Shown: positions 1,405 through 52,711, numbered from the stretch's first letter. The stretch is 64,000 nucleotides of DNA from Candidatus Magasanikiibacteriota bacterium (GCA_041678665.1 JBAYNU010000004.1:12863-76862), one strand, 5' to 3'. The notes: generated by a model not told the origin, from the sequence alone. A program made the numbers and translations.

Positions 1405-2769
1405 ATGAGTAAAAATTTTTATATTCTTACCCTTGGTTGTCAGATGAATAAAAACGATTCCGAAAGAATTGTTGGGTTGTTGTTGTCGATTGGCATGAGC
1501 CAAGCGACCAAAGCCGAAGAAGCGGATTTAATTATTGTGAATACTTGCAGTGTGCGCCAAACCGCCGAAGAGCGGGTGACCGGGTTTTTTCATAATTGGA
1601 AGGAGCTGAAAAAGAAAAATCCTCTTTTAATTATTGCCATTACCGGTTGTATGCCCGGACGAGATAAGGATGGTAAAATTAAGAAAAAATATCCGGATGT
1701 GGATTTGTGGTTTGGAATAGATGCGTTGCCGCAGTTGCCTAAATGGTTGGAAGGACTTGGTCTGGATTGTCATTCTGAGCCATGCCTACCGGCAGGCAGG
1801 CGAAGCCCGCAGGGCGGAGTCGAAGAATCTATCGGCGATTACCTACAAATTATCCCCCGACGAGATAATCGCTCTTCAGTTTTCGTCTCCATCCAAACCG
1901 GTTGTGATAATTTTTGCACTTATTGCGTAGTGCCCAGCGCGCGCGGCCGCGAAAGGAATCGGCCACTTAAAGATATTCTGGAAGAGGTGAGGCAAGCGGT
2001 AGCGCAAGGCGCAAAAGAGATTATATTATTAGGGCAAGTGGTGAATCATTATAAAATCAAAGATGAAAAATCAAAAATAAAAAATAGTCCATTTAAGGAT
2101 GATTTTGCGGTTTTGCTTTGGGAGATAAATCAGATTTCGGGTGAATTTCGGGTGCATTTTACGGCGGCTGATCCGCAGTATTTTAGTGATGAGCAAATTG
2201 AGGCGCTTAAACTTTCCAAACAAGTGAATTATTTACATTTGCCGGTGCAAAGTGGGGATAATGAAGTTTTAAAAAAGATGAATCGTAAATATACACGCGA
2301 GCAGTACATTGAGTTGGTTAAAAAAATTCGTGTGGCGCGGCCGGGTATTGTATTGGGGACAGATATTATTGTTGGTTTTTGCGGGGAAACCGAAGACCAG
2401 TTTCAAAAGACTTTTGATTTATATCGGGAGTGTGATTTTGATATTTCTTATCATGCTATGTATAGCGAGCGTAGCGGTACCCCCGCGGCCAAGGTATTTA
2501 AAGATGATGTGTCATATGCCAAGAAAAAACGACGCTGGGATATTTTGCAAGAGTATATGGAACAGCGGACTTTGGAGAAGAATCAGAAGTATTTGGGGCA
2601 AACAGTGCGGGTGCTTGTGAACGAATTTGAAGATGGTGTGTGTTTTGGAAATAGTGATGAGTTGAAGTTGGCGCAATTTTTAGGCAAGCCAGAGACGGTC
2701 GGCACTTTTCAAAAAATAAAAATCACCCAAGCATTGGCTTGGGTATTGAGAGGTGTTTATGAAAAATAA
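1405..2769 (+). CDS. miaB: Radical-SAM methylthiotransferase (MiaB-type tRNA-i6A37 methylthiotransferase)
   Basis: MTTase N-domain (LTLGCQMNKNDSE...NTCSVR), radical SAM CxxxCxxC (QTGCDNFCTYCVVP) and TRAM-like C-terminus. Overlaps miaA by 17 nt. Carries an in-frame copy of repeat family A at 1769-1830. Confidence 0.85.
   Translation: MSKNFYILTLGCQMNKNDSERIVGLLLSIGMSQATKAEEADLIIVNTCSVRQTAEERVTGFFHNWKELKKKNPLLIIAITGCMPGRDKDGKIKKKYPDVDLWFGIDALPQLPKWLEGLGLDCHSEPCLPAGRRSPQGGVEESIGDYLQIIPRRDNRSSVFVSIQTGCDNFCTYCVVPSARGRERNRPLKDILEEVRQAVAQGAKEIILLGQVVNHYKIKDEKSKIKNSPFKDDFAVLLWEINQISGEFRVHFTAADPQYFSDEQIEALKLSKQVNYLHLPVQSGDNEVLKKMNRKYTREQYIELVKKIRVARPGIVLGTDIIVGFCGETEDQFQKTFDLYRECDFDISYHAMYSERSGTPAAKVFKDDVSYAKKKRRWDILQEYMEQRTLEKNQKYLGQTVRVLVNEFEDGVCFGNSDELKLAQFLGKPETVGTFQKIKITQALAWVLRGVYEK
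1769..1830 (+). repeat. Repeat family A copy A1 (GTCATTCTGAGC...GGAGTCGAAGAATC), in frame inside miaB
   Basis: Shares its terminal motif and internal GGAGTCGAAGAATC with copies at 18628, 38241, 39432, 61717, 40069 and 10122. Encodes CHSEPCLPAGRRSPQGGVEES. The alternative frame gives the VILS...ESKNL peptide of ORF 1721..1930. Confidence 0.7.
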
Positions 2770-3724
2770 TTTACCAAAAGTATTAATTATTTTAGGTCCA
2801 ACTGCTTCCGGTAAAACGGAGTGGGGAATTAAGATTGCCCAAAAATATAATGGAGAAGTAGTGAGTGCGGACAGCCGGCAGGTTTATAAAGGAATGGATA
2901 TTGGCACTGCCAAACCAAGCGGAGTTAAAAGTTCAAAGTTGAAAGTTATCAAGAGCGGCGAACAGACGCGTCATAACGACGGGCATATCTATATTGTTGA
3001 AGGCATTCCACATCACTTGATGGATATAATAGAGCCAGATGAAGAATTCACTCTGGCGGATTTTAAGAAACGAGCCGTGGTAGTCATTGAGGATATTTTG
3101 AAACGCGGCAAATTGCCGATTATAGTGGGCGGTACCGGGTTATATATACAAGCGCTCGTGGATAATTTAGATATACCCAAAGTGGCGCCTAATTTAAAAT
3201 TGCGTGCTGATTTGGAAAAGAAATCATTATCCGAGCTGGTGGAAATATTAAAAAATATTGATTCGGAAAGCGCTAAAAAAATTGATTTGCATAATCCTCG
3301 GCGCGTGTTGCGCGCGCTAGAAGTGGTATTGGACAGCGGAGGATCATTCGCGCGTCAGCAGAAAAAAGGTTCGGTTTTATATGATGCTTTGCAGATAGGG
3401 ATTCCTTTGCCGCGCGAAGAGCTGTATAGCCGAATTAACGCGCGGGTGGATAAACAAATAGCTGACGGACTTTTGGAAGAAACAAAAAAACTGGTCAAAA
3501 AATTTGATTGGAAGTTGCCCGGTATGAGCGGTATTGGGTATAAACAAATTGGATATTTTTTGCGTGGTGAAATGAGTTTATCAGCGGCAATAGAAATATT
3601 AAAAAGAGATACTCGCCACTATGCCAAAAGGCAAATGACTTGGTTTAAAAGAGATAAACGAATAAATTGGCTGGAAAATTATCAGCAAGCTGAAAAGTTA
3701 GTGGAAGGTTTTTTGCGAGATTGA
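2753..3724 (+). CDS. miaA: tRNA dimethylallyltransferase
   Basis: P-loop GPTASGKT, SADSRQVYKGMDIGTAKP motif. Adjacent to and overlapping miaB. Confidence 0.9.
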   Translation: MFMKNNLPKVLIILGPTASGKTEWGIKIAQKYNGEVVSADSRQVYKGMDIGTAKPSGVKSSKLKVIKSGEQTRHNDGHIYIVEGIPHHLMDIIEPDEEFTLADFKKRAVVVIEDILKRGKLPIIVGGTGLYIQALVDNLDIPKVAPNLKLRADLEKKSLSELVEILKNIDSESAKKIDLHNPRRVLRALEVVLDSGGSFARQQKKGSVLYDALQIGIPLPREELYSRINARVDKQIADGLLEETKKLVKKFDWKLPGMSGIGYKQIGYFLRGEMSLSAAIEILKRDTRHYAKRQMTWFKRDKRINWLENYQQAEKLVEGFLRD

Positions 3725-3733
3725 CATTAAACT

Positions 3734-3764
3734 AAAACGCCCAATTTTAAATCGGGCGTTTTAG
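3734..3764. terminator. Bidirectional hairpin AAACGCCC-loop-GGGCGTTT between convergent miaA and rel
   Basis: 8-bp perfect stem flanked by A/T runs on both sides. Confidence 0.6.
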
Positions 3765-3770
3765 TTTAGA

Positions 3771-5279
3771 TTATTTATTTTTTCCCGGCAGTATCGATTT
3801 CAGCCATTCCAGTTTTGATTTATTTAAGCTATTTTTGATATGTATTTTGGCGCCGTGAGTTTTAACTGATTTAAGCCAATCAGGACTGGGTCCTTTGCGG
3901 TCTTTGCTAATTATAATATCTATTACGTCGCCATTTTTTAAAGGAGTATTAAGGCTCACTAATTGATCATTGACTTTGGCGCCACTGCAGTGGTCGCCGA
4001 TATCGGTATGAATATGATAAGCAAAGTCAACCGGCGTGGCATCCTCGGGCAGGTCGATAACGTCGCCTTTAGGAGTAAATACGAAAATGTGATTTCGGAA
4101 AAAATCTATTTTCATTTCTTCCAAATCGGAGAGATTATTAAGAATTTCTTTTTGCAGTTTAGCCAATTCTTTTGCCCAAGAAATATTTTTATTAGGCAGT
4201 CGTTTACCGTGTTCATCATAATGCCAATGAGCAGCCGCACCATATTCGGCGTCATCATGCATTTCTTGAGTGCGAATTTGAAATTCCATTATTTTACCAT
4301 TTTCGCCAAAGACGGTAGTGTGAAGAGATTGATAGCCGTTGGGTTTGGGTTGGGCGACATAGTCTTTAATACGGCCTTTGAGGGGGTGCCAAAGCTGGTG
4401 GACAATTCCTAAAGTGGCATAACAATCACTGATATCTTTCACAATGATTCTTAGAGCGATAATATCATAAATTTTGTCTATTTCCCAGTTTTTAGTAAGT
4501 AATTTTTGGTATAGGCTATATAATTGTTTTTCACGATTATGCAAAGAAAATACGGTAATGCCGGATTTTTTTAATTCATGATTAAGCTTGTGTTTGGTTT
4601 TTTCCAAAGTTTGAGAAGAGTTTTTGAGAACTTCTTCTCTGATGGCTTTTACTTTTTCATATTCTTTAGGGTAAATATAAGGGAAAGATAAATCTTCCAG
4701 CATTCCTTTAAATTCACCCATACCCAGGCGATTAGCGATGGGAGCGTAAATTTCTAGACTTTCCAAAGCGATGCGATAGCGCTTGTTGGGCTGGTGGGCT
4801 TCCAGTGTCATTAAATTGTGAACGCGGTCGGCAAATTTGACTATCATCACGCGCACATCTTCGGCCATGGCCACAAACATTTTTCGTAAATTTTCTATAT
4901 AGCGTTCAATACCGCGATATTTGAGAGTGCCAAGTTTGGTAATTCCTTTGACAATCGAGGCGATATCTTTGCCAAATTTTTTTTCAATTTCTTCCAAAGT
5001 TATTTTTGTGTCTTCCGGCACATCATGTAGCAGGGCCGCGGCGATAATACTCGGTTCAATTCTCATGGTGGTTAAAATATGAGCGGCGGCCAGAGGATGA
5101 TTAATATATAACTCGCCTGATTTACGGGTTTGGCCGGTATGAGCTTGAAAGGCAAAATCATAAGCAGACCGAACAAGATTAAGATCTTTTTGGTCGCTGT
5201 ATTTTTTTAGTTCTTTTAGTAGCAATTCAATGTCTAAATTTTGAGGAATTGCTATCATAATATTATTTTTTATATCCAC
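3771..5279 (-). CDS. rel: Small RelA/SpoT-family (p)ppGpp synthetase/hydrolase (HD + synthetase + TGS domains)
   Basis: HD hydrolase motif HTGQTRKSGELYINHPLAAAHIL..HDVPEDT, RelA/SpoT synthetase core and a C-terminal TGS-like segment. 502 aa, so it lacks the long ACT-containing tail. Confidence 0.85.
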   Translation of the reverse strand: MDIKNNIMIAIPQNLDIELLLKELKKYSDQKDLNLVRSAYDFAFQAHTGQTRKSGELYINHPLAAAHILTTMRIEPSIIAAALLHDVPEDTKITLEEIEKKFGKDIASIVKGITKLGTLKYRGIERYIENLRKMFVAMAEDVRVMIVKFADRVHNLMTLEAHQPNKRYRIALESLEIYAPIANRLGMGEFKGMLEDLSFPYIYPKEYEKVKAIREEVLKNSSQTLEKTKHKLNHELKKSGITVFSLHNREKQLYSLYQKLLTKNWEIDKIYDIIALRIIVKDISDCYATLGIVHQLWHPLKGRIKDYVAQPKPNGYQSLHTTVFGENGKIMEFQIRTQEMHDDAEYGAAAHWHYDEHGKRLPNKNISWAKELAKLQKEILNNLSDLEEMKIDFFRNHIFVFTPKGDVIDLPEDATPVDFAYHIHTDIGDHCSGAKVNDQLVSLNTPLKNGDVIDIIISKDRKGPSPDWLKSVKTHGAKIHIKNSLNKSKLEWLKSILPGKNK

Positions 5280-17141: not shown

Positions 17142-17759
17142 ATGTCTAATTTTAGAGAAGGAGCCGGGGGTGAACCACTTGTTGATCCGATGGCTTTGGA
17201 AAGTTTGAGCAACAAGGAAGTTGTTGGGTTAAAATGGCCGGTTGAAGCCATTAGTTCGGTTATTCCCAAGCATTATCAAGACAAAAATAGCTACGGATTT
17301 TTATCACCGGAAAATAAACATGGCAACGAATTATTGTTGTGCGTATATCGCAAAGGCAAAACAGCCAAGGGTGCGGAAGCTGATTTTTATTTTGGTGAAG
17401 AGACTATAGACGAAGAATTATTAAAGCAATTGAAAGGCAAAGGCCGTCCAGAGTTTTTTGTGCATCTAGGTAAAATGAATAATGAACCGCAAACATTGGT
17501 TTTGCACAGCATTGATTTGGCGCAAGCCAGCCGTGGGCAGGGGATTGGAGCGGAATTTAACCAAAGATTACTTATTATAGCAAAACAGCTTGGTTTTAAT
17601 AAAATTGTGGTCTCGGTGGTGAACGAGTCGGCTAAGAATTTGTATAAAAGTTTGGGATTTACTTCGGCTACCGGGGAGACCTTGAGAAATATGAAAATAC
17701 AAGGTATTTATACCCGCGATCCCAATAAGAAGGAATATCCGATGGTGCGGATTATTTAA
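17142..17759 (+). CDS. GNAT-family N-acetyltransferase with N-terminal extension
   Basis: Acetyl-CoA motif A (ASRGQGIGAEFNQRLL...AKNLYKSLGF). Confidence 0.65.
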   Translation: MSNFREGAGGEPLVDPMALESLSNKEVVGLKWPVEAISSVIPKHYQDKNSYGFLSPENKHGNELLLCVYRKGKTAKGAEADFYFGEETIDEELLKQLKGKGRPEFFVHLGKMNNEPQTLVLHSIDLAQASRGQGIGAEFNQRLLIIAKQLGFNKIVVSVVNESAKNLYKSLGFTSATGETLRNMKIQGIYTRDPNKKEYPMVRII

Positions 17760-19230
17760 TGATTTTTTCTACTACTTCAATCACATTTTTCACCGGCGCG
17801 AGTTTGAGGCCGGTGATTTTGTTTTCGTCGGATAAAGAGGGGGTAACAGCGTAAGAGAAACCCAGTTTTTTTATTTCTTCCAAGCGTTTTTTGGTTTGGG
17901 GCACTCCGCGTACTTCGCCGGCTAAGCCCACTTCGCCAAAAGCGGCGAGTCCTGATGGCAGAGTTTTATTTTGAATAGCCGAAGCTACCGCGAGTACTAC
18001 CGCGAGATCAGCTGCTGGTTCGTCGGCCTCCATTCCACCGACAACATTTAAATAAACATCATAACTATCCAAAGGCAATCCGGCGCGTTTGGTTAAAATG
18101 CCAATGAGTACTTGCAGGCGGTTGAGATCAAAGCCACTGGCGCGACGTTGCGGATAGCCGAAATTTGTTTTGGTGACTAGCGCTTGAATTTCTATAAGTA
18201 TTGGCCGCGTGCCTTCCATTAAACAAGTAACTGCCGTGCCCGGCACATTTTCGGCGCGACCGGATAAAAAAGCTTGGCTGGGATTAGCGACTTCTATTAA
18301 TCCAAGTTCACGCATTTCAAAAATTCCCACTTCATCGGTTGAGCCAAACCGATTTTTAACCGCGCGCAAGATGCGAAATCCATGAAAGCGGTCGCCTTCC
18401 AAATATAAAACCGTGTCCACCAAATGTTCCAAAGTTTTTGGTCCGGCTACTTCGCCGCCTTTGGTTACTTGGCCGATTAAAATAATAGTGGTGCCGGTAG
18501 TTTTGGCTATGGCCATCAGTTTGGTGGCGCAGGCGCGGATTTGGTTGACATTACCCGGCGCGCCTTCGGCTTCGTCGGAGTAGAGTGTTTGAATAGAATC
18601 GATGATGACGAGGGCTGGTCGTCCGTTGTCATTCTGAGCGGAGCGTAGCGGAGTCGAAGAATCCCTTTCCGTTTTTGTTTTAAGAGATCCTTCGCTATGC
18701 TCAGGATGACAGTTGTTGATCGTCGCGATCACACTCTCCACATTCGTGGCGCTGACAAAGCGCAATAAAGAGGTATTTATTTTTAGTCGATCAGCCCGCA
18801 GTTTGATTTGTTCAGCGGATTCTTCGCCGGAGATGTATAGCGTATTGGCGACCGCCTGCGCTAATTGTAATGCCAAGGTAGATTTGCCGATGCCCGGTTC
18901 GCCACCCAAAAGTATTAAGCTCCCCGGCACAAATCCACCACCCAGTACCCGGTCAAGTTCGCCTATGCCGGATTTGGTTCGCAAAGTATTAGACGATTTA
19001 ATTTCATCCAATCTCGTCGTTTTTAATGGTTCGTAATTTGAATTTTGAATTTTGGAATTTATTTGGAATTTGTCATTTGAAATTTGGGATTTTTCCAAAG
19101 TTCCCCATTTACCACATTCCAAACATCTACCCGCCCATTTAGAATATTGCGCGTCGCAGTTGGAGCAAACAAATTGGATATTATTTTTGGTCATATTAAT
19201 GGCAAGCAGCGGACATTCTTGGTTTTTCAA
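17752..19230 (-). CDS. radA: DNA repair protein RadA/Sms
   Basis: Zinc finger CSNCDAQYSKWAGRCLECGKW, Walker A GGEPGIGKSTL, Lon-like C-domain. The real start is probably the internal MTKNN. Carries in-frame repeats A2 and B2. Confidence 0.9.
   Translation of the reverse strand: MKNQECPLLAINMTKNNIQFVCSNCDAQYSKWAGRCLECGKWGTLEKSQISNDKFQINSKIQNSNYEPLKTTRLDEIKSSNTLRTKSGIGELDRVLGGGFVPGSLILLGGEPGIGKSTLALQLAQAVANTLYISGEESAEQIKLRADRLKINTSLLRFVSATNVESVIATINNCHPEHSEGSLKTKTERDSSTPLRSAQNDNGRPALVIIDSIQTLYSDEAEGAPGNVNQIRACATKLMAIAKTTGTTIILIGQVTKGGEVAGPKTLEHLVDTVLYLEGDRFHGFRILRAVKNRFGSTDEVGIFEMRELGLIEVANPSQAFLSGRAENVPGTAVTCLMEGTRPILIEIQALVTKTNFGYPQRRASGFDLNRLQVLIGILTKRAGLPLDSYDVYLNVVGGMEADEPAADLAVVLAVASAIQNKTLPSGLAAFGEVGLAGEVRGVPQTKKRLEEIKKLGFSYAVTPSLSDENKITGLKLAPVKNVIEVVEKIIK
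18628..18712. repeat. Repeat family A copy A2, complete 85-bp imperfect palindrome, in frame in radA
   Basis: GTCATTCTGAGCGGAGCGTAGCGGAGTCGAAGAATCCC...GAGATCCTTCGCTATGCTCAGGATGAC. Encodes HPEHSEGSLKTKTERDSSTPLRSAQNDNG. Confidence 0.75.
19034..19095 (-). repeat. Repeat family B copy B2 (reverse orientation), in frame in radA
   Basis: Reverse complement matches the recG copy. Encodes KSQISNDKFQINSKIQ. Confidence 0.7.
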
Positions 19231-20347
19231 AATGCCAGGCTTCCGAATCTAGTACGCAGAAACCTTCTTCTTTCATGGCGGTTATTAAAGCCGCTTGGCA
19301 GGGATTTTTTCGGCAAGGATCGGTGGTTGGATCTTTGGTGCAGTATTTTTGTAAGATGCACTGACTGCCATTTTTCGTTCCCCACATATCTACGGCCATT
19401 CCGGTAGTATGCGGGCAATTGAGTGGGTTTTTGTCGCGTAAAATACAAGTGTTAGGTTTTCCTTCTATTGGATCACAAGTAATGGATCCGGGTAGATTTT
19501 TACAGTTTGCCAAAATTAGACGATATTGATCTTGAAGTGCGCGCCAACCAGAAGTAATTGATACATTAATACCAACGGATTTCATTTTTTGAGCGACAGC
19601 GGCTACGTCTTCTAATAGGTCTGAATTTATAGCAATGGTGCCATTGGTAGAAATATTATCTATGTTTCTAATGATAACTCTTTTTTCAATATCTCCGGTA
19701 GGTACAAAATCCACCGCGTCACTTTCTTCTTCTATTTGAATGGGTGTAATAAATTTTATTTTTAAACTTTTAAATTCTACCAGGTCGGGGTTGATCGTTT
19801 TTAATAGAATATATGATCCCCAAATTAAAATTAAACCGATGACAGCTTCACCAATGCGTTTGTAAGCGGTCGTTTTTTCTTCCCCACCACCAGAGGTAAT
19901 TATTTTTATTCCTTGAAGAATAATTACTATAGCCGCCGCGATTGAACTAATGATAATTCCAACTTTATATAAAGCGGAGAGAAATTCACCGATCCATGGA
20001 ATATACAAATAGCCAGCTTCATCCAGCGCGTTTTTGGGGTCAATAACAGTATATTTAAGATAGGGAATGTGAATGGAATTCCGTGGGGTGATCAGCTCGT
20101 CAATCGGCTCGGTAAGTTGAATTGATTCGTCGGCAGAAGTGTCCTTAATGCAGTAATACTTTCCTTCGTTGTTGGCTACACTACTACAAAGCATTCCCAC
20201 CTTGGCGCAATTCAGCGTTTTGCATTGCATTTCTCTGCTTCCCTGCTCTATTGCTTGGTCAGTCAGTATGTCCATAGGCAAAGCTAAAACCGATTTGGTT
20301 GGTAGTAATATTGCCAAAAACGAAATGATTATTATGATTTTTTTCAT
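19196..20347 (-). CDS. Secreted, membrane-anchored LAS/M15-family zinc peptidase (VanY/L-Ala-D-Glu peptidase-like) with Cys-rich N-domain and a two-helix hairpin anchor
   Basis: Signal peptide; two hydrophobic helices separated by TSGGGEEKTTAYKR; C-terminal SGWR...CPHTTGMAVDM (HxxGxAxD)...SEAWHFE (ExWH) zinc-ligand motifs; about 20 Cys. Confidence 0.65.
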   Translation of the reverse strand: MKKIIIIISFLAILLPTKSVLALPMDILTDQAIEQGSREMQCKTLNCAKVGMLCSSVANNEGKYYCIKDTSADESIQLTEPIDELITPRNSIHIPYLKYTVIDPKNALDEAGYLYIPWIGEFLSALYKVGIIISSIAAAIVIILQGIKIITSGGGEEKTTAYKRIGEAVIGLILIWGSYILLKTINPDLVEFKSLKIKFITPIQIEEESDAVDFVPTGDIEKRVIIRNIDNISTNGTIAINSDLLEDVAAVAQKMKSVGINVSITSGWRALQDQYRLILANCKNLPGSITCDPIEGKPNTCILRDKNPLNCPHTTGMAVDMWGTKNGSQCILQKYCTKDPTTDPCRKNPCQAALITAMKEEGFCVLDSEAWHFEKPRMSAACH

Positions 20348-20357
20348 AATATTTAAC

Positions 20358-21050
20358 TTATTGAGTGCTCACGGTAGTAAATTTGTTTAGCAATTCTTCA
20401 ATGTTTATGTCATCCATCAAATTTATTTTTTTGTTATTTACAAAGATAGCCGGTAATTCCACTACGCCCAAACTTTTAGCCAAAGCCATAGATTCAGCAA
20501 TTTTATTTTGGGTAGTAGTCGCGGTGCGGCAGATTTGCCATTTATTTATATCCAAATTTAAACTTTGTGCCACCTTATTTAAACCGCTTTCTTTTAAGTT
20601 ATTTTTGTCCGTCATTACTAAATTAACAAACGGGAAGAATTGTCCCTGTTCGTAGGCGCAATAGGCGGCTAAATGGGCGGGTAAATTACCGGTGCTAAGT
20701 AGAGTCATTTGCGGGGTGTCTTTCCAAATTAAGCGGGCTTTTTCTGGATTTTCTCTGATGAATTTGGTAATGGCGTAAGTTATTTCACCACAACGTTTAC
20801 AGCCTAGGTCAGCGAATAGCACGATCCAAAGTTTGGCGCCCGGGTTACCAAAAGTGGGATCGGCGGGGAAGATGGGAATGTAGGTAGCGGTGGAATTAAC
20901 AATAGGTGTTTCGACGTAATTCGTAACAATGGAGCGCGCTTCTTTTATTTTGATGATTAATAGCAAAATAACACCAGCGATAAGCAATATTAAAATGAGA
21001 TAGAATTTTTTATGATGGGACATATTAAAAAGTAGTAAGCAAATAGTCAA
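20358..21050 (-). CDS. Thioredoxin-fold DsbA-like thiol:disulfide oxidoreductase, membrane-anchored
   Basis: TM anchor plus the CKRC active-site-like motif in a DsbA-like context. Confidence 0.6.
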   Translation of the reverse strand: MTICLLLFNMSHHKKFYLILILLIAGVILLLIIKIKEARSIVTNYVETPIVNSTATYIPIFPADPTFGNPGAKLWIVLFADLGCKRCGEITYAITKFIRENPEKARLIWKDTPQMTLLSTGNLPAHLAAYCAYEQGQFFPFVNLVMTDKNNLKESGLNKVAQSLNLDINKWQICRTATTTQNKIAESMALAKSLGVVELPAIFVNNKKINLMDDINIEELLNKFTTVSTQ

Positions 21051-21057
21051 GTTAAGA

Positions 21058-22284
21058 TTATAAGTTAGCTTGAAAGATGCCGGTTTTGTTTTTGTCGGTA
21101 AAAATAACTTTATTATTTAAATTATCATATTCAATCGTGTTGATATTATAATCATCGCCCAAGGGAATTTCCGTTTGCAGTCCGGTATTAGTGTCAATTT
21201 TTATTAAGTCATAATTACTATCGGCGGCAATTTCCGGCATCAGCCCTGCTCCTTTTATCAGATCACGGGGAACAGCGCAGTAAAGCACTTGCTCATTGGC
21301 AAAAGTACATTTTTCCGCCCAAGTGTAAGTTTTTAACATTTTACGACCAGTATTAATATCATCGCCATAAGCGTTGGTAATCCATAATTCCGGTTTTAAA
21401 TCACTACGGTCGCTCCAAACACTATAAAGCAGACGTTTGCCTGAAGGCGACCATTGTTCCTCAAATCCCCAACCTTCGGTGGTTAGCCCGCGGAAGTTTT
21501 CGTGATTAAGGCCAACCAACAAAATTTCGCGTCTTTGGTCTCCGATTGGTTCGGCGGTTTGTGAGAAGGCCAAGGTTTGGCGGCTGGGCGACCAGTCAAC
21601 AGTTACTTTGTCGGCGTTAGCTCCCATCGGTTCGATGATTTTGGTGTGAGTGCCGTCGGAGTCTACGGTTATTAACCAACGATTTTCTTCCGCCACGCCG
21701 ATACTTTTGGCGCCGATTTGATCATCGGTTGGTGAAAAAGAAAATTCTTCCCAATGTTGTGGCAGGGTTATTTGTTTTTGTTTATCAAAGTCATAAACTA
21801 TTTTGTTGGCATCGGGATATTCAATCACGGCTTTATTGGAAGTGTTGCCCCAGGTAACATCGGAGACATTATAAAATACCTGATCAGATAGTGCGGTAAT
21901 TGTGCCGTCAGCGGAGCGTTTATAAAATTTGCCATTGGCGGCATTGTAGTAACGAAGCGAACTGTCTTTACTAACGGAATTGTAGACGGCATAATCGGAA
22001 ACAATTTTGGTTACCGGTTCTTTTTTAAAGTAACTGTCACTTACTCCCGGAATGTTGCCGGCTTGGGGCAGGCTACCGGTGCCGGTTTGTCCTGTAGTAG
22101 TGGTCGTCGGTCTTTCTCCAGCCGCCGGAAATTGTCCGGTAGTGGAAGCGCCCGGAATAATTTGCCCCGGGGTAACAAAGCCACCGGTAGTTTTTTTAAA
22201 CATATAATAAAGCGCTAAAGCAATGGCGCTGGCCAGTATTAGCAGTCCGATGGCGAGTAGTATTTTTTTTAGGCGAGTAGACAT
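21058..22284 (-). CDS. Membrane-anchored beta-propeller (TolB/PD40-like) protein with Thr/Gly-rich linker
   Basis: N-terminal TM, TTTTTGQTGTG linker, repeated WSPSG/DG.. blade-like motifs. Confidence 0.5.
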   Translation of the reverse strand: MSTRLKKILLAIGLLILASAIALALYYMFKKTTGGFVTPGQIIPGASTTGQFPAAGERPTTTTTGQTGTGSLPQAGNIPGVSDSYFKKEPVTKIVSDYAVYNSVSKDSSLRYYNAANGKFYKRSADGTITALSDQVFYNVSDVTWGNTSNKAVIEYPDANKIVYDFDKQKQITLPQHWEEFSFSPTDDQIGAKSIGVAEENRWLITVDSDGTHTKIIEPMGANADKVTVDWSPSRQTLAFSQTAEPIGDQRREILLVGLNHENFRGLTTEGWGFEEQWSPSGKRLLYSVWSDRSDLKPELWITNAYGDDINTGRKMLKTYTWAEKCTFANEQVLYCAVPRDLIKGAGLMPEIAADSNYDLIKIDTNTGLQTEIPLGDDYNINTIEYDNLNNKVIFTDKNKTGIFQANL

Positions 22285-22300
22285 AAAATTTTTTTAGTTT

Positions 22301-23356
22301 TTAAATACGTGAAATTATGCGGTCGCGTAGTGCTTCTCTTTCTATTTTTGGTTCTAATTTTTTGATAGCATTGTCTATGCCGCTGATAATTTTTTTAAAG
22401 GCAATTTTTAATTTACCAAATGCCAAACCGTATATAAAATAAAATAATAGTAGAGGTGAGAAAAAAATGATAAAAATATTTGTCCAAGAAAAATGTATCA
22501 ACCATAATTTTAATCCTTCCGCCATTCCCGCCCAAAATATTAATCTATTTATTTTATTTTTTAATTCTTGCAATTTGGTAATCGCCTTTTGTATAGCCGG
22601 GGCGCGATTCTGCCCTTTTATTTGTTTAAGCTCTGTAAATACATCAGTGATTTCGTCGGCTAGTTTAGGTAACAGAGTTTTGATTACCATTGTTACTGCC
22701 GGAGAATTAATCATGTCGTCAGAATCTTTGGATAGTTCTTGCAATTCCGCTTCCGCCTGTTTAGATTCTTCTAAGCGTTGTTGTTGGCGTTGCTGGTCTA
22801 ATTCCGCGGCAATTGTTTGTGGGTCATCTTGATTAGGGTTGCTGTCGGCTGGCGGTGAAACATCTTCGTCTTTGGCGGTTTTTTCGGTTTTTTCCGGAGG
22901 CGCAGAGGTATTGGCTTCTGCTGGCGGTTGATCAAGAGTTTCGTCTGATACTAAAGGGGTAAGTTCCTCAGCGCCGGGCGACCCCGGGTTTATTGTTTGG
23001 GGTCGAGGAAAAGTTTGAGAGGCGGTAAAATTTGGTTTTTTCATATCTATGCCAGCTTGTGGTTGTTCTTCCGGTTTGAGGGTAGGTGGCTCGTTTGAAA
23101 TGTTGGTTTTTTTGTCTTCTTCCTCGCCTTCTTCTCCCTCCGGTGTTTTGATGTTGATTTCAATGCTATTATCATCCAGTTTATTCACTCCTTTTCCTTC
23201 TACCGAGTTAATAGTCAAATTATTATCGGAATCATTATTGGTTGAGTTGGTCTCAATTTTAATCTTATCCGGATTTTTGCTGGATATCTGGGGCGGGGTC
23301 ACTGGTTTTTCTTTTTGGTCGTTATCTTTTATTTCTTGATCATCGGTCATAATCAC
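22301..23356 (-). CDS. Hypothetical acidic low-complexity protein with C-terminal TM helices
   Basis: ORF only; E/D/P-rich N-terminal two-thirds; hydrophobic C-terminus. Confidence 0.45.
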   Translation of the reverse strand: MIMTDDQEIKDNDQKEKPVTPPQISSKNPDKIKIETNSTNNDSDNNLTINSVEGKGVNKLDDNSIEINIKTPEGEEGEEEDKKTNISNEPPTLKPEEQPQAGIDMKKPNFTASQTFPRPQTINPGSPGAEELTPLVSDETLDQPPAEANTSAPPEKTEKTAKDEDVSPPADSNPNQDDPQTIAAELDQQRQQQRLEESKQAEAELQELSKDSDDMINSPAVTMVIKTLLPKLADEITDVFTELKQIKGQNRAPAIQKAITKLQELKNKINRLIFWAGMAEGLKLWLIHFSWTNIFIIFFSPLLLFYFIYGLAFGKLKIAFKKIISGIDNAIKKLEPKIEREALRDRIISRI

Positions 23357-23388
23357 GTATCACACGGCACATATTAGATGTTGTGTAT

Positions 23389-25920
23389 TTAGCTAATTGT
23401 TAGTTTATTATTTTTTACTGTTAATTCGTATTGTTTCTTTATTTTGTTATTTAGAATGATTTCGGATATTAAGGTCTCTATATTATTTTGAATATAACGG
23501 TGTAAATTACGTGCCGGAGCGTCTTGGCTGGTAAGTTTGTCAACAATAAATTGGATGGCGGTGTCAGTTGGTTGGATGGCGGTGTGGTAATTTTGTAAAC
23601 GTCTATTAAGTGTATTTATTTCTAAGCTAGCGATTTGGTTTAGGTCAGCAGTGGTGAGGTTGTTAAAATAACAGATGGCGTCCAGACGGTTGATAAACTC
23701 GGGAGAGAAATATTCCTTAAGTTTGTCGTCTATAAAAGAGTGATTTAAATAAGGGGAATTACCAAAACCGATAGCGCCTTTTTTGGCATCTATCGCCCCG
23801 ACATTAGTAGTTAATATTATTATAGCATGTCTAAGGGAAATTTGCTTGCCCGAGGCATCGGTAATTTGTCCGTTTTCTAAAATTTGCAGCAGTAGCTTGT
23901 TTACGTCTCGGTGCGCTTTGTCTACTTCATCAAATAGAATTACGCGATAAGGATTAAGTTTAATTTTATCGGTAAAATTATTAGCTTCTTTAAAACCAAT
24001 ATAACCGGCAGGAGAGCCTAATAATTTGGCAGTGCTGTGTTGTTCATTGAACTCGCTCATGTCCAGTTTGATGAAGGCGTCCGAATCGGGATAAAGTGTC
24101 TGTGCCAAGACTTTGGCTAATTCTGTTTTACCCACTCCGCTTGAGCCAACAAATAAGAAGGAAGCCAAGGGTCTTTCGAAACTGCTTAATCCGAGTTGTC
24201 CTCTTTGGATGGCTTTGGCGACAATAGCGACTGATTCGTCTTGGCCGATAATATATTTTTTGAGGTTTGTTTCCAATTGAATCCAGCGATTTTTATCATC
24301 AAGCATGATTTGCGCCGCCATGGTGCCGGTAATTTTGGCTATCTGTTCGGCTACTTGTCGCGCGGTGATGGTACCGGCGGATTTTATTTTTTTCTTTTTT
24401 CCAGATTCGATCTGTTTTTGAATTAAAGCGTGTAATTTTTTTTCTTCGGTTTTTAGTTTAAGCGCTTCGTCAAATTGGTTTTGTCCGGCGGCGGATTCTT
24501 TGGCCAAAATAGTTTGTTCCAGTTTTTGTTCTAGACGCTGAATCTTATTTTGCCAAGGGGAATTTTTGGACTTCACGCGTTTGGCGGCCGCCGTTTCGTC
24601 TAGTAAGTCAATGGCTTTATCGGGTAAAAATTTACCGGTAATATAGCGTTCCGATAATTTAACCGCCGCTTCCACCGCTTCGTCGGTAATTTTAACATTA
24701 TGAAATAATTCATAATTTTTTTTCAATCCTTTTAATATTATGATAGCATCTGTAGTGGTCGGTTCTTTTATAATGATAGGTTGAAAACGGCGTTCCAAAG
24801 CAGAATCATTTTCAATATATTTTTTAAATTCCGGAGGAGTAGTAGAACCAATACAGCGTAGCTGCCCGCGCGCTAAGGCCGGTTTTAGAATATTGGCTGC
24901 GTCCATCGCCCCTTGGTTGGAACCGGCACCCACAATATTATGAATTTCATCAATAAATAAGATAATATTAGGATCACTCGCGACATCATCTATCACTTCT
25001 TTAAGTCGCGCCTCAAATTCACCGCGATAAATGGTGCCGGCGATTAAAAGCCCCATGTCCAAAGCATAGATTTTTTTGTTTAAAAGCAGATCTGGCACAT
25101 CGCCGGTTGTAATTTTTTTGGCCAGACCTTCCACGATTGCCGTTTTACCTACGCCCGGATCGCCCAGTAGTATTGGATTATTTTTGGTGCGGCGGCAAAG
25201 GATTTGGATCAGCCGTTCAATTTCCGTATCGCGTCCGATTACTGGATCAATATTTTTTTGAGTGGCTTGGTCGGTAAGATTAATGGCAAAAAATTCTAAA
25301 GCATTATCTGTGTTCGTCATGTTTCCGGAGGGGGATTTACTTTTGGTAGTTGATTTTTTAGAATGCGCAATGGGTGACGCTATTGGGTGATTATCCAGAT
25401 GTTCATTAATTTTTTCGATAGTTTCGGCTACTTCGGTCATGCGCGGAAATTGAGTGGCATTATTTAGAACGATGTTGATTTGTTTTTCCAATTCCGTTGT
25501 TTTTATTCCGTTTAGTTTGAAAATTTCATTTATTTTAGGGTCGTTAATAGCGGTGATGGCCGCCAGTAAATGTTCGGTTCCCAAATAATTGTGGTGATTT
25601 TGTTGGGCTAGATAAAGGGCTTTTTCCAAAGTGATTTTTGTAGTGGGAGCAAGCGGAGTGATAGTTTTTTCGGCGGTGGCTTGGGGAGTTTGTCTGGCGG
25701 TATTTTTGGTGCTGGGTAAATTAATAATAAATTGTTCAATAATTTTTGGGTCAATTTTAAAACGGTTAATAATTTCTGCTCCCACCGCGCCTTTTTGGTT
25801 TTGTAAAACAAAAAGAATATGGATTAATTCCACTTGCGGATTTTGGAGTTCGGTTGCCAGGGCGATTGCCCGAGATAGCACTTCTTTAAGGTGGGTAGAA
25901 AAACGTTCCAACAAGTCCAT
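23389..25920 (-). CDS. clpC: Clp/Hsp100 AAA+ chaperone (ClpC/ClpB family, short middle domain)
   Basis: Clp_N repeats, two Walker A motifs ([11 protein letters not shown]; [12 protein letters not shown]), short coiled-coil M-domain. Confidence 0.85.
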
Positions 25921-25934
25921 AGAAATATATTAAA

Positions 25935-26012
25935 ACATGAAAACACCAGAACATAAAAACAATTAATATTTTATTGGTTTTTATGTCTAGTGTTATTGTA
26001 TTTTCATGTTCA
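25935..26012. promoter_or_regulatory. About 78-bp imperfect palindrome in the divergent clpC/pgm intergenic region (AACATGAAAACACCAGAACATAAAAAC...GTTTTTATGTCTAGTG..TTTTCATGTTC)
   Basis: Nested inverted repeat seen directly; candidate operator. Confidence 0.4.
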
Positions 26013-26053
26013 GTATTGTATACTAAATTAACCTTTTATTCAAGCGAAAAAGT

Positions 26054-42862: not shown

Positions 42863-44767
42863 ATGGGTGAGACATTTATTAAACTTATTGGAGACATAAC
42901 GCGCATTAAAGCCATTGTGTATTTAATGGTTGTTTTTGGGTTGATTTATCTGGGTACTAACTATTTTTTACTTTGGCCAGCCGCTACTTTGCCCATGTTA
43001 AATTGGGAAAAAAATGTTCCTTTTTTAGCTTGGACGGTCATTTTTTATTATCTTACTTATTTTCAAGCAGGGGCCATACTTTTATTAGTAAATAAATCTG
43101 ATTTACGAAAGGTTTTAATGGCTTTAATCGGATTAATAGTATTGCATGGTTTGGTTTTTTTGTTTTTTCCTACCGTTTACCCGCGTCCGGTTTTCGAGTC
43201 AACGCATACTGTTTGGACAAGCTTATATGGCGTTTTAATTTATTTTGATCATCCTCTTAATTGTTTTCCTTCGCTTCATGTGGCGACGTCTGTGCTGGTA
43301 ACATTAATTTTTTGGCGAATGAAAAAATCATGGGGCGCATGGTCATTGATTTGTACCCTGTTGGTTATTATTTCCACTCTTACCCTCAAACAGCATTATG
43401 TGGTAGATATTGTAGGTGGTTTAATTACTGCCAGCGGTGTTTATTATTTTTTTAAGACTCGTTCCATAAAAATAATGCCGGTTATTTTTTTGGTAATTTT
43501 TTCCTTGCTGATTTTTACACCTATTCTGGTTTCGGCTGATTCCACTCAAGCTCAATTAGAGGCGGAGCTGAAAGATATTGAAAGACAAATTGCCGAATAT
43601 ACCGTGGAACTTGGCAAGACGCAAACCGAAAAGACCACTTTAGCCAATAAAATTAAACAATTGCAATCTCAACAAAAAAGTTTGACGTTGCAGGTGAAAG
43701 CTACCGCGCTTAAGTTGTCGGATATCGGTAGTCAGATTACGGAAAGAGAAAAAAGTATTAAATCCAATTTAACTAAAGAACAGCAATTAAATAATGATAT
43801 TGCAGTGGTATTGCGTCAAATTAATGCCGTTGATAACAACATTCTATTGGCACTCGTGGCGGCTGATGGCCTATCGGAAGTTTTTAATCAAGTTCAAAAT
43901 TATGTTGCTTTAACCGATGCGATTATAATATTACAGAAGCAAAATAAAATTATTCGTACTAATTTAATTACCGAACAAACCATATTAGAGGGGCAGAAAG
44001 ACGAAGCCAATGATTTGCTTAAAATAAAATCTATTCAACAGCAAAGTTTAAATAGTTCCATTAGCCAGCAAAATCAATTGTTGACTGCGACCAAAGGCAA
44101 AGAGAGTAATTACCAAACCATCCTTAGCGACCGTAAAAACCGCGCCGCCGCGATTCGTAGCCGAATTTATGAGCTGTTTAACACTGGTAGTCAAATTAAT
44201 TTTGGTCAAGCGGTAGAAATTGCCAAATGGGCGGGTGGGATCACTGGTATGAGAACTGAGTTTTTGCTTGCCATCTTGACACAGGAGTCAAATTTGGGTA
44301 AAAATGTTGGTACTTGTAATCGGAGTGGTGACCCACCAGAAAAAGGTTGGCAGGTGATAATGAAACCAACTCGCGATCAGGAGCCGTTTAAAAAAATTAT
44401 TGAAGAATTGGGGCTGAATATTGATACGACCCCAGTGTCGTGTCCGATGAAAGATAAAAATGGCAATCAAGTGGGTTGGGGCGGGGCGATGGGGCCGGCG
44501 CAATTTATTCCTTCTACTTGGATGGGGTATAAAAATAAGGTTACCGCTATTACCGGTAAAAGCACCGCTAATCCTTGGGATATTCGCGATGCATTTTTGG
44601 CGGCGGCGATTAAGTTAAAAGGAGACGGCGCCAACGGCACCGATGACGGCGAGTGGAAGGCGGCGATGCGCTATTTCGCCGGTTCGGTAAATTTAAAGTA
44701 TCGTTTTTATGGTGATAATGTAATGACGCTGGCGAAACAGTATCGCACGGACATTGCTGATTTATAA
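42863..44767 (+). CDS. Polytopic PAP2-like membrane domain fused to a long coiled coil and a C-terminal lytic-transglycosylase-like domain
   Basis: PAP2 motifs FPSLHVATS and LKQHYVVDIVGG; about 200-aa heptad region; SLT-like TQESNLG...GAMGPAQFIPSTW. Confidence 0.6.
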   Translation: MGETFIKLIGDITRIKAIVYLMVVFGLIYLGTNYFLLWPAATLPMLNWEKNVPFLAWTVIFYYLTYFQAGAILLLVNKSDLRKVLMALIGLIVLHGLVFLFFPTVYPRPVFESTHTVWTSLYGVLIYFDHPLNCFPSLHVATSVLVTLIFWRMKKSWGAWSLICTLLVIISTLTLKQHYVVDIVGGLITASGVYYFFKTRSIKIMPVIFLVIFSLLIFTPILVSADSTQAQLEAELKDIERQIAEYTVELGKTQTEKTTLANKIKQLQSQQKSLTLQVKATALKLSDIGSQITEREKSIKSNLTKEQQLNNDIAVVLRQINAVDNNILLALVAADGLSEVFNQVQNYVALTDAIIILQKQNKIIRTNLITEQTILEGQKDEANDLLKIKSIQQQSLNSSISQQNQLLTATKGKESNYQTILSDRKNRAAAIRSRIYELFNTGSQINFGQAVEIAKWAGGITGMRTEFLLAILTQESNLGKNVGTCNRSGDPPEKGWQVIMKPTRDQEPFKKIIEELGLNIDTTPVSCPMKDKNGNQVGWGGAMGPAQFIPSTWMGYKNKVTAITGKSTANPWDIRDAFLAAAIKLKGDGANGTDDGEWKAAMRYFAGSVNLKYRFYGDNVMTLAKQYRTDIADL

Positions 44768-44777
44768 AGTATAAAGT

Positions 44778-52600: not shown

Positions 52601-52711
52601 AAATATGTAATTCTACATGCCAATGAACCAAGATATTCTATATTGCATAAACATAGTTCATCTAACAAGAGTTATATTTTTTTATAGTACAATGTAATAA
52701 TATGTGTAGCA

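Follow-up and report, generated by a model that had tools for sequence, protein, structure and literature searches.

A four-gene block in a Candidatus Magasanikbacteria genome encodes a 383-aa protein that is predicted to join a hairpin of the type IV secretion system (T4SS) pilin family to a zinc peptidase of the LAS/M15 group. On balance, with somewhat better than even confidence, we favour the interpretation that this block is a T4SS accessory module of Patescibacteria, in which a VirB2-like anchor would carry a wall-opening enzyme of the VirB1 type. The interpretation draws on PF18895 family matches, linkage or proximity to VirB4 in relatives, exchange of catalytic domains in one slot, a pilin array beside one relative, T4SSs in Magasanikbacteria and an intact active site, together with the finding that most VirB2-bearing Patescibacteria have no recognisable VirB1 (PMC12102498). 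If it is correct, the fusion may supply the wall-cutting part that seems to be missing from the secretion machines of these bacteria.

Gene block and flanks

The window, that is, the whole stretch of DNA analysed, covers 64 kb of an 83.6-kb contig, and its host is an ultrasmall bacterium of the candidate phyla radiation (CPR). A preliminary description had reported four co-oriented ORFs at 19196-23356, and an ORF check found each of them where it had been placed, on the minus strand.

17752-19230, minus strand: RadA/Sms, downstream flank (synteny; context only)
19196-20347, minus strand: fusion protein, 383 aa; signal peptide, Cys-rich ectodomain, predicted VirB2/T4SS_pilin-like hairpin and predicted LAS/M15 (VanY-like) zinc peptidase
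19199-19681, minus strand: predicted LAS/M15 peptidase domain of the fusion, residues 223-383; S266/R269/Q274; zinc ligands H313, D320 and H372; catalytic E369; 10 Cys, 8 of them near-invariant
19733-20095, minus strand: hairpin module of the fusion, residues 85-205; PxLxIxIPG motif, helix 118-151, loop SGGGEEK, helix 156-185, INPxLV motif
20096-20278, minus strand: variable Cys-rich N-terminal ectodomain of the fusion, residues 24-84; C42, C47, C54 and C66
20279-20347, minus strand: predicted signal peptide of the fusion, residues 1-23 (MKK, hydrophobic core, SVLA/LP); hydropathy and AlphaFold2 helix 2-13
20358-21050, minus strand: DsbA-like oxidoreductase, 230 aa; Thioredoxin_4 match, syntenic in about 18 loci
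21058-22284, minus strand: beta-propeller protein, 408 aa (AlphaFold2, Foldseek and synteny)
22301-23356, minus strand: acidic membrane protein, 351 aa (composition and hydropathy)
23389-25920, minus strand: ClpC/ClpB-type AAA+ chaperone, upstream flank (Pfam-type match; context only)

Intergenic gaps within the block are 10, 7 and 16 nt; clpC lies 32 nt upstream, and the start of radA abuts or overlaps the stop codon of the hydrolase gene. Promoter-like sites occur upstream of clpC at about 25968-26043, and clpC probably heads the transcription unit. Housekeeping genes (lemA-htpX-clpC ... radA) surround the block in this genome and in most relatives, and no T4SS genes are present in the 64-kb window or in an additional ~15 kb of the contig that was examined.

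The fusion protein and its neighbours

The signal peptide claimed for the 383-aa protein agrees with a hydrophobic segment at residues 1-25, and a Sec signal and its cleavage site are predicted from the sequence; hydropathy places further hydrophobic segments at 119-155 and 164-186. The ectodomain following the signal peptide has low pLDDT and is little conserved in alignments A1 and A2. It was rightly described as Cys-rich, since it holds 4 of the 14 cysteines, with 10 in the peptidase domain and none in the hairpin.

The two-helix hairpin, previously likened to VirB2/TrbC pilins, was recovered by hydropathy and by an AlphaFold2 model in which both helices have pLDDT >90, and together with the signal peptide and a short charged loop it reproduces pilin topology. 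Residues 119-180 match T4SS_pilin (PF18895) with E 3.4e-4 and 21 bits, below the Pfam gathering cut-off of 26.6. The same family is matched by 51 of the 73 members of the fusion's own family (best E 4.6e-9; TrbC by one) and by 72 of 105 further representatives. At family level, the likeness of the hairpin to T4SS pilins goes beyond mere VirB2-like topology and extends to profile matches. Searching with a profile of the hairpin module found 45,306 cluster representatives and no sequence match among the solved pilin structures searched. Small single-domain pilins have about 70-130 aa; the fusion has 383 aa and two extra extracytoplasmic domains.

For the C-terminal domain, the proposed LAS metallopeptidase is borne out by Pfam, Foldseek and conserved motifs alike. 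Its motifs are SGWR (266-269), H313-TTG-M-A-V-D320 and E369-A-W-H372, of which H313-x6-D320 and E369-x-W-H372 are invariant across 73 sequences and align to the motifs of VanX and LdcB. In M15 enzymes the zinc triad takes its His and Asp from an H-x(3-6)-D motif and its other His from a C-terminal ExxH, which also supplies the catalytic Glu. The VanY Pfam family is matched by the 383-aa protein alone with E 1.8e-5 and by 54 of 73 family members. An AlphaFold2 model of residues 223-383 (pLDDT >90) retrieves with Foldseek Ply500 (2vo9), VanX (1r44), VanXYc (4mut), LysB4 (6akv), LdcB (4ox3/4jid) and VanY (5hnm) at probability 0.99-1.0, and a profile search against solved structures retrieves VanX, LdcB/YodJ and VanY. 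Sequence and model together indicate a LAS fold, whose central antiparallel sheet has helices packed on it, and an intact M15 active site comprising the zinc triad and the catalytic Glu. On whether the enzyme is of the M15/VanY type or a phage L-Ala-D-Glu peptidase, the LAS/M15 fold stands, whereas the subfamily rankings conflict: Pfam favours VanY and Foldseek puts Ply500 and VanX first. Because of this disagreement we assign no bond to the predicted cleavage. The enzyme had been described as secreted; an extracytoplasmic location is indeed expected, but it is tethered to the membrane rather than freely secreted.

The next gene, described as a dedicated DsbA-like gene, merits that name. Its product matches Thioredoxin_4 (E 1.9e-14), scores 25.2 bits against DSBA, just under the cut-off of 25.6, and has a CxxC motif (C84-K-R-C87) and an N-terminal TM anchor (11-42); translation probably begins at M10 (21023). 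The orthologues of loci L012, L020 and L024 likewise carry CxxC, and that of L024 matches DSBA with E 2.8e-20. By sequence, the protein has the thioredoxin fold, CxxC and extracytoplasmic placement of a DsbA-like thiol:disulfide oxidoreductase.

TolB consists of an N-terminal TolA-binding alpha/beta domain and a six-bladed propeller, and binds Pal in the diderm periplasm. The 408-aa protein, called TolB-like in the preliminary description, shares with TolB and PD40/WD40-like propellers the fold and a weak PD40 repeat signal. However, its model (pLDDT 85) comprises a TM helix (3-33), a disordered Thr/Gly/Pro-rich linker (33-85) and a propeller (91-408) of 28 strands, hence seven blades, and lacks the TolB N-terminal domain. 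Foldseek ranks the tricorn propeller first and also retrieves oligogalacturonate lyase, WD40 proteins and TolB, the last at rank 10 among hundreds of propeller matches, and the propeller has >626 homologues at ~55% identity. We therefore reject the TolB identity; as modelled, the protein is a generic seven-bladed propeller on a TM anchor and not a TolB orthologue. Patescibacteria have been described as monoderms (PMC12857230), and the window showed no Pal or Tol genes.

The 351-aa protein is acidic, as claimed (60 D+E versus 44 K+R), and evolves fast; its N-terminal part is disordered or coiled, and a hydrophobic segment (286-320) lies towards the C-terminus. The protein is homologous to its positional equivalents in L029, L001, L003 and L031, but its conservation is confined to the Magasanikbacteria-type lineage: in Uhrbacteria-type genomes, the protein in this slot has a similar architecture and no detectable sequence similarity.

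Synteny, VirB4 linkage and exchange of catalytic domains

About 20 species-level genomes share the gene order propeller-DsbA-hairpin/hydrolase-RadA, which is more than chance and bears out the synteny in relatives that the preliminary description had made its test. In two of them (L020 and L024), the triad closes a co-directional PrgI-VirB4 cluster with which it is contiguous. The genes of L024, all co-directional, run 601 aa - PrgI (PF12666) - 240 aa - VirB4 (PF19044, 1e-30) - 188 aa - TM protein - pilin-like 476 aa - propeller - DsbA - hairpin+VanY - RadA, and L020 is its equivalent. Eight other loci have VirB4 or its neighbour within 10 kb: VirB4 and a 189-aa neighbour lie 6-9 kb off, past RecG, in L014, L015, L017 and L018; in L009 and L013, VirB4 is cut off where the locus ends; and L011 and L016 reach only the neighbour of VirB4. 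The association with VirB4 and other T4SS genes that marks a pilin is found in L020 and L024 (contiguous) and in L009, L013-L015, L017 and L018 (VirB4 within 10 kb), and not in the window or the examined contig parts. Inside the available flank, no VirB4 is present in about half of the syntenic loci (~10 of 20). In L028, a hairpin+M15 fusion is encoded just upstream of a three-member array of short VirB2-like pilins. Independently, a published study reports recG and radA as common members of T4SS loci in the class ABY1, and the Magasanikbacteria genomes in its tables have VirB4/TrsD/PrgI clusters as well as 'VirB2' matches away from virB4 (PMC12102498).

In other loci, the hairpin in this slot bears different cargo, namely C39-like (L029), Amidase_2 (L031) and M23 (L012) domains, and a census of fusions adds SLT, NlpC/P60, CHAP, 3D and M15_4. 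Tandem paralogues with differing cargo occur in L012 (M23+M15) and also in L010, L017 and L018. Neither the VirB4 linkage in relatives nor this swapping of hydrolase domains was part of the preliminary description.

These patterns bear on an alternative that we regard as unlikely, in which the fusion is a housekeeping enzyme independent of any T4SS: an endopeptidase, or a DD- or LD-carboxypeptidase, on a simple two-pass anchor that would trim the cell's own peptidoglycan in growth or division. It would be co-expressed with the envelope quality-control genes for LemA, HtpX and ClpC, and the DsbA of the block would fold it. Housekeeping genes alone, with no VirB4, make up the window and the examined contig parts, the clpC-radA position is stable in most relatives, and tight packing with clpC and radA suggests constitutive co-transcription. 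Moreover, VanY is the best Pfam match, and the structures matched (VanX, LdcB/YodJ and VanY) are stem-peptide or D-Ala-D-Ala peptidases, LdcB being a wall-trimming carboxypeptidase. However, a trimming enzyme would hardly be expected to have amidase, C39-like, M23 or SLT domains take the place of its catalytic domain at one locus, the anchor appears related to T4SS pilins and not just a generic TM segment, and the triad is contiguous with PrgI-VirB4 in two loci and close in eight more.

Domain swapping could also point outward, to a host-directed pilus weapon in which the fusion is a minor pilin in, or capping, a VirB2-like filament and its hydrolase cuts the host wall at contact, with cargo matched to host wall chemistry. 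We consider this improbable. In-situ exchange of bond specificities recalls the diversification of polymorphic toxins and endolysins, and the tandem paralogues, the pilin array of L028 and the extensive disulfide bonding, which suits a cell-exterior protein, all fit, as does the dependence of epibiotic growth in Saccharibacteria on pilin arrays and T4SS (PMC10633639). However, no pilus has been observed, and a 160-residue globular domain per subunit fits a VirB2-type helical filament poorly, which at best would leave the fusion a place at the tip or as a rare subunit. Cargo swapping is not diagnostic either, because any bond specificity would likewise do for holing the cell's own wall. An extended form of this idea, to us equally speculative, makes the VirB2-like hairpin a general carrier of M15, M23, amidase, SLT, NlpC/P60, CHAP and C39-like enzymes, which would be interchangeable and would reach the T4SS filament on minor pilins. 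The propeller would serve outside the cell as a partner in assembly or host recognition, DsbA would be the folding factor, and the whole would form a contact-dependent drill through the wall of a host bacterium in episymbiosis; one-slot cargo swapping would then record adaptation to differing host wall chemistries.

A remnant prophage lysis cassette, with a holin-like two-TM hairpin fused to an M15 endolysin, has a superficial likeness to holin-endolysin pairs and the phage endolysins Ply500 and LysB4 among the top structural matches in its favour, but it is effectively ruled out by the identical chromosomal position in about 20 species-level genomes, the lack of phage genes nearby, a signal peptide, Cys-rich ectodomain and dedicated DsbA foreign to lysis cassettes, and the match of the hairpin to the T4SS_pilin family.

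Proposed role and comparison with known systems

As part of a T4SS accessory module, the 383-aa protein would leave the cytoplasm via Sec and its VirB2-like helical hairpin would insert in the membrane, so that the Cys-rich N-domain and the C-terminal peptidase would both face outward. The adjacent membrane-anchored DsbA-like enzyme may make its disulfides, all 14 Cys being predicted to be extracytoplasmic. The domain content, the intact active site, the topology signals, the synteny, the VirB4 linkage in relatives and the domain swapping are observed, and what we infer is the targeting, the bond that is broken and the owner of the wall. The pilin-like module would lead the enzyme to the site where the VirB4 machine handles VirB2-like subunits, and the zinc peptidase, with its active site intact, could cut stem peptides locally and open the wall for a channel or pilus. 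Wall opening in other T4SSs is the task of VirB1 or PrgK-type hydrolases. Two further conserved partners accompany the fusion, namely the membrane-anchored propeller and the acidic membrane protein. Against the module stand the lack of T4SS genes in the window and examined contig, the housekeeping surroundings, the sub-threshold PF18895 score of the protein itself, the lack of a solved pilin match and the ~10 of 20 loci without VirB4 in the flank. Also against it, we know of no T4SS pilus demonstrated by experiment in Patescibacteria and of no precedent for a propeller or DsbA as T4SS parts. The literature searched contained no fusion of pilin hairpin and wall hydrolase.

Among LAS/M15 peptidases, VanY and LdcB (M15B), VanX (M15D) and the L-Ala-D-Glu endopeptidases Ply500 and LysB4 (M15C) share with the fusion's domain both the fold (E 3e-5 to 1e-3 in Foldseek) and the SxxR...Q, HxxxxxxD and ExxH motifs, at an identity of only 12-23%. 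In contrast to these known enzymes, the domain has a Cys-rich insertion (282-311) and eight conserved Cys.

The VirB2-like pilins of Patescibacteria (PF18895; PMC12102498, PMC10633639) resemble the fusion in having a signal peptide, two hydrophobic helices and a short charged loop, and in related genomes the fusion is encoded within or alongside PrgI-VirB4 clusters and adjoining arrays of short pilins. However, these pilins have ~100 aa, whereas the fusion adds a Cys-rich N-domain, a 160-aa enzyme after helix 2 and the conserved hairpin-flanking motifs PxLxIxIPG and INPxLV, and in this Magasanikbacteria genome it is not near virB4.

VirB1-type hydrolases of monoderms include PrgK of pCF10, TraG of pIP501, CwlT of ICEBs1 and TcpG of pCW3, and we know of no description of an M15 zinc peptidase among them. 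Like PrgK, TraG, CwlT and TcpG (established background and PMC12102498), the fusion would be a peptidoglycan hydrolase that is tethered to the membrane, faces out of the cytoplasm and is tied to a VirB4 machine, and the Gram-positive cargo repertoire of SLT, CHAP, NlpC/P60, M23 and amidase equals that of the fusion family, whose paralogous and orthologous members carry SLT, CHAP, NlpC/P60, M23 and Amidase_2. The differences are that VirB1-type proteins have a single TM helix as anchor, versus a pilin-like hairpin, and that the 383-aa fusion has an M15 zinc peptidase only, without the SLT/GH23 lytic transglycosylase or CHAP/NlpC domain that defines the type. By this comparison, its relation to VirB1-type hydrolases is one of functional analogy rather than membership.

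A conserved envelope gene block between clpC and radA

The 383-aa protein is encoded in a run of six minus-strand genes (window positions 17752-25920) arranged head to tail:

23389-25920, minus, clpC
22301-23356, minus, 351-aa acidic membrane protein
21058-22284, minus, 408-aa protein (propeller)
20358-21050, minus, 230-aa thioredoxin-fold protein (DsbA-like)
19196-20347, minus, 383-aa protein (hairpin/hydrolase fusion)
17752-19230, minus, radA

From clpC to the 383-aa gene, the gaps are, in order, 32, 16, 7, and 10 nt, and radA starts directly at, or overlaps, the stop codon of the 383-aa gene. A pattern scan found a cluster of promoter-like sites upstream of clpC and no convincing candidate for a minus-strand terminator between the six genes, which fits, if weakly, a single transcription unit from clpC to radA. 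The two genes are adjacent in the clpC operon of Bacillus subtilis; in the window, the four envelope genes lie exactly between them. The other genes of the window are housekeeping genes (aminoacyl-tRNA synthetases, topoisomerase I, DprA, Der, RecG, DnaE, RNase Y, IF-2, etc.), together with four tRNAs. A second envelope-biogenesis pair at 42863-46712 (plus strand) encodes a 634-aa PAP2-superfamily membrane protein, then a 644-aa sulfatase-family protein, possibly LtaS-like. Two neighboring ORFs without a Pfam match (300 and 339 aa; 51698-53731, minus strand) adjoin an HTH_17 and Fic/DOC pair (50728-51159) that is also found in the region L034; together they are possibly a small mobile or defense islet amid the housekeeping genes.

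Scanning one genome per GTDB species, we found 28 loci, about 20 of which share the order (lemA-htpX-clpC)-TM protein-propeller-DsbA-hairpin/M15-radA, with recG convergent, while the clpC...radA context is missing in more distant members, such as Moranbacteria. The preliminary description had named a lack of synteny in relatives as a refuting outcome; the genes are syntenic, and the four-gene block is real and conserved. In two relatives' loci, L020 and L024, clpC was not detected upstream of the triad of propeller, DsbA-like protein, and fusion; genes of a PrgI/VirB4 cluster are found there instead, which suggests that the junction of triad and radA stayed fixed while its surroundings were rearranged. 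The record titles of these two loci and of L003, L009, L010, L013, and also L021 read "uncultured Gammaproteobacteria" or "Bdellovibrionales", probably mislabels of Patescibacteria, since gene content and synteny are of the Uhrbacteria or Magasanikbacteria type.

The neighbors of the fusion were largely as first described. The 230-aa protein, encoded 10 nt away, is indeed Thioredoxin_4/DsbA-like, with one N-terminal TM anchor and the motif C84-K-R-C87, and the CxxC is kept in all three orthologues inspected. The 408-aa gene, the best conserved of the block, has more than 626 homologues, the top 120 of which are about 55% identical. The supposed TolB-like propeller stands as a propeller and not as TolB: in the model (pLDDT 85), a TM helix leads through a disordered linker of 50 residues to 28 strands forming seven blades, and the Foldseek matches were propellers of a generic kind (tricorn protease, oligogalacturonate lyase, WD40 proteins, TolB), so orthology to TolB is rejected. 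The 351-aa acidic membrane protein is present as described; it is net acidic and mostly low-complexity, with a C-terminal hydrophobic segment, and its clear homologues are limited to Magasanikbacteria-type loci (41% identity to the protein in locus L029). In the same slot, Uhrbacteria-type genomes encode a protein of like architecture without detectable sequence similarity. HMMs and hhalign split the TM proteins between clpC and the propeller gene into Magasanik-type and Uhr-type groups with no detectable relationship, which rejects a single family, and gave no significant link between these proteins and the VirB4-adjacent TM proteins of L020 and L024.

A pilin-like hairpin joined to an LAS/M15 peptidase

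Against Pfam, the 383-aa protein matches VanY at residues 239-373 (E 1.8e-5, with a score at the gathering threshold) and the T4SS_pilin family PF18895 at residues 119-180 (E 3.4e-4, 21 bits versus a cut-off of 26.6); against NCBIfam, it weakly matches a pilin-like conjugal transfer protein of a mycoplasma ICE. A search found 100 homologues, and all those with a specific taxonomic label are Patescibacteria (Magasanik-, Uhr-, and Moranbacteria). When 73 aligned members were searched singly, VanY was matched by 54 (best 2.4e-13), T4SS_pilin by 51 (best 4.6e-9), Peptidase_M15 by 20, and TrbC by one. On these matches, kinship of the hairpin with the T4SS pilin family appears to hold at the family level, though the 383-aa protein itself is sub-threshold. 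A profile of the hairpin module matched neither VirB2 nor TraA among PDB sequences, which leaves Pfam as the basis of the homology to pilins.

In the AlphaFold2 model (pLDDT 83.8), low-confidence residues 18-80 precede a pair of long helices, 118-151 and 156-185, with the loop SGGGEEK between them; an acidic linker and a confident alpha/beta domain (223-383) follow. Foldseek placed this domain with Ply500, VanX, VanXYc, LysB4, LdcB, and VanY (E 3e-5 to 2e-2), and a profile search matched VanX, LdcB/YodJ, and VanY among PDB sequences. Together with the Pfam match, these results make the LAS/M15 assignment firm, while the ranking of M15 subfamilies differs by method (VanY by Pfam, VanX/LdcB/VanY by PDB-sequence profile, Ply500/VanX by Foldseek). 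R269, Q274, C311, H313, A318, D320, E369, W371, and H372, as well as G146 and P187, are invariant in the 73-sequence alignment, the peptidase domain has eight Cys that are at least 90% conserved, and the zinc site is intact. Hydropathy indicates a signal peptide in residues 1-25 and, further on, two TM segments, and all 14 Cys fall in the N-domain and the peptidase domain; once the signal peptide is cleaved, both domains would be extracytoplasmic. Thus, the signal peptide, the VirB2/TrbC-like hairpin, and the C-terminal peptidase, all first read from the sequence alone, are supported by hydropathy, by family matches with the two-helix model, and by agreement of fold, profiles, and motif residues, respectively.

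Exchange of catalytic domains behind the hairpin

Several homologues match the 383-aa protein only in its N-terminal half, and in these Pfam identifies the hairpin followed by a C39-like peptidase, Amidase_2, SLT, M15_4, or 3D domain. Two such fusions, C39-like in L029 (P0050) and Amidase_2 in L031 (P0081), occupy the same slot as the M15 fusion, with the DsbA gene on one side and radA on the other, and with clpC, the TM protein, and the propeller upstream. In another relative (L012), a hairpin+M23 gene is directly upstream of the hairpin+M15 gene.

The module belongs to a large family. Searched against 1.84 billion cluster representatives, its profile (residues 85-205) gave 45,306 matches at E <= 1e-3, 16,394 at <= 1e-10, and 727 at <= 1e-30. 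In a Pfam census of 105 top representatives with a single hairpin (alignment A5), PF18895 was matched in 72, and the cargo was VanY in 21, SLT in 12, Amidase_2 in 9, NlpC/P60 and Peptidase_M15 in 8 each, Peptidase_C39_2 in 7, Peptidase_M23, Peptidase_C70, and Lipase_GDSL_2 in 3 each, and Peptidase_M15_4, Lipase_GDSL, 3D, and CHAP in 2 each. This range, together with the half-matching fusions, points to the hairpin as a putative carrier of peptidoglycan hydrolases of essentially all classes. The few fusions with GDSL lipase/esterase or Peptidase_C70 (AvrRpt2-like) domains, which are not classical wall hydrolases, suggest that it may deliver other enzyme types too. Two census members match the Dickkopf N-terminal Cys-rich family. 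"Poly-pilin" proteins with tandem hairpins in one polypeptide score above all single-hairpin proteins in the module-profile search, with 11 matched stretches in P0224 (1147 aa), 17 in P0231 (1775 aa), and 4 in P0221 (618 aa), whose C-terminus resembles a lytic transglycosylase motif.

Relation to type IV secretion

In L024, the triad forms the 3' end of a single co-directional cluster with T4SS genes, in the order 601-aa protein, PrgI, 240-aa protein, VirB4, 188-aa protein, 176-aa TM protein, 476-aa Cys-rich pilin-like protein, triad, followed by radA (PrgI PF12666 and, in the 476-aa protein, PF18895 above threshold; VirB4 PF19044 at 1.3e-30). L020 is laid out in the same way, with two Cys-rich pilin-like genes. 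In these pilin-like proteins (476-560 aa; L020:3882-7160 and L024:6030-7460), whose genes separate the VirB4 cluster from that of the propeller, Cys-rich domains flank the hairpin on either side, and no catalytic domain is recognizable; Cys-rich non-catalytic domains on the hairpin may be adhesin-like cargo. In L014, L015, L017, and L018, VirB4 and its 189-aa neighbor lie 6-9 kb away on the opposite strand, beyond recG, and these VirB4 proteins are 70-73% identical to that of L020; VirB4 is truncated by the locus end in L009 and L013, and L011 and L016 extend only to its neighbor. In L028, labeled Saccharibacteria, three genes for short VirB2-like pilins form an array (3573-3962, 3959-4258, and 4360-4731), and the gene just upstream of it encodes a hairpin+M15 fusion of 326 aa. 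Within this stretch (1835-4731), an apparent antitoxin/toxin pair, read by eye, follows the fusion (2858-3482).

The most economical reading, which we consider somewhat probable, is that the hairpin module positions a wall hydrolase for a T4SS. The hairpin would place the enzyme where the VirB4 machine handles VirB2-like subunits, the hydrolase would open the wall locally, as VirB1, PrgK, TraG, or CwlT do in other T4SSs, and folding of the exposed, Cys-rich domains would fall to the neighboring DsbA.

No T4SS genes were found in the window by Pfam on about 45 ORFs or by tblastn with a relative's VirB4 and its neighbors, and further parts of the same contig yielded no VirB4, only a T2SSE-type ATPase. 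This T2SSE/PilB-type gene (L033:4809-6521, located some 5 kb outside the window on its start side and flanked by unannotated genes) points to type IV pilus or T2SS-like machinery on the contig, without VirB4 in the parts examined. Thus, in this bacterium the T4SS link rests on orthology and lineage, not adjacency. Independently, a published survey of Patescibacteria found that in the class ABY1, to which this bacterium belongs, T4SS loci commonly contain recG and radA, and its tables include Magasanikbacteria genomes that have VirB4/TrsD/PrgI clusters as well as "VirB2" matches away from virB4 (PMC12102498). The main rival, an enzyme that has no part in a T4SS, works on the cell's own wall, and uses the hairpin only as an anchor, is favored by the purely housekeeping context, which the window shares with half of the syntenic loci; pilin homology, cargo swapping, and the contiguous VirB4 clusters of L020 and L024 count against it, and we consider it unlikely. 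Cargo diversification and tandem paralogues hint at a more adventurous possibility, that the fusion is built into the pilus and acts on the host's wall, but neither discriminates, cargo diversity because opening the own wall would be equally tolerant of any bond specificity, and we find this quite improbable. Given its synteny and the lack of phage genes, the block is not a prophage lysis cassette.

Under the T4SS-positioning reading, the fusions offer a concrete candidate for how ultrasmall cells open peptidoglycan, their own or a host's, for a secretion apparatus, with enzyme specificity, localization, and essentiality as testable targets. They may also be among the "VirB2" counted away from virB4 in genome surveys, and they are a naturally occurring case of a cassette that swaps domains while its locus stays fixed. 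The literature searched, of incomplete coverage and thus giving absence of evidence only, contained no description of the pilin module-hydrolase fusion, of its conserved triad, or of in-place cargo swapping, nor do the Patescibacteria T4SS papers mention such fusions. The ingredients are already known, namely, M15 peptidases, DsbA, VirB2-like pilins in Patescibacteria, and T4SS-associated hydrolases; here, in a large protein family, the pilin-like module itself bears the wall hydrolase, as part of a conserved triad that also comprises a dedicated DsbA and a membrane-anchored propeller. The Patescibacteria T4SS is essential for epibiotic growth in the sole system tested (PMC10633639). Among monoderm T4SSs, those of Patescibacteria are unusual in encoding VirB2-like pilins (PMC12857230), and most of their genomes with VirB2 have no recognizable VirB1 wall hydrolase (PMC12102498), as would follow if the hairpin fusion does the job of VirB1.
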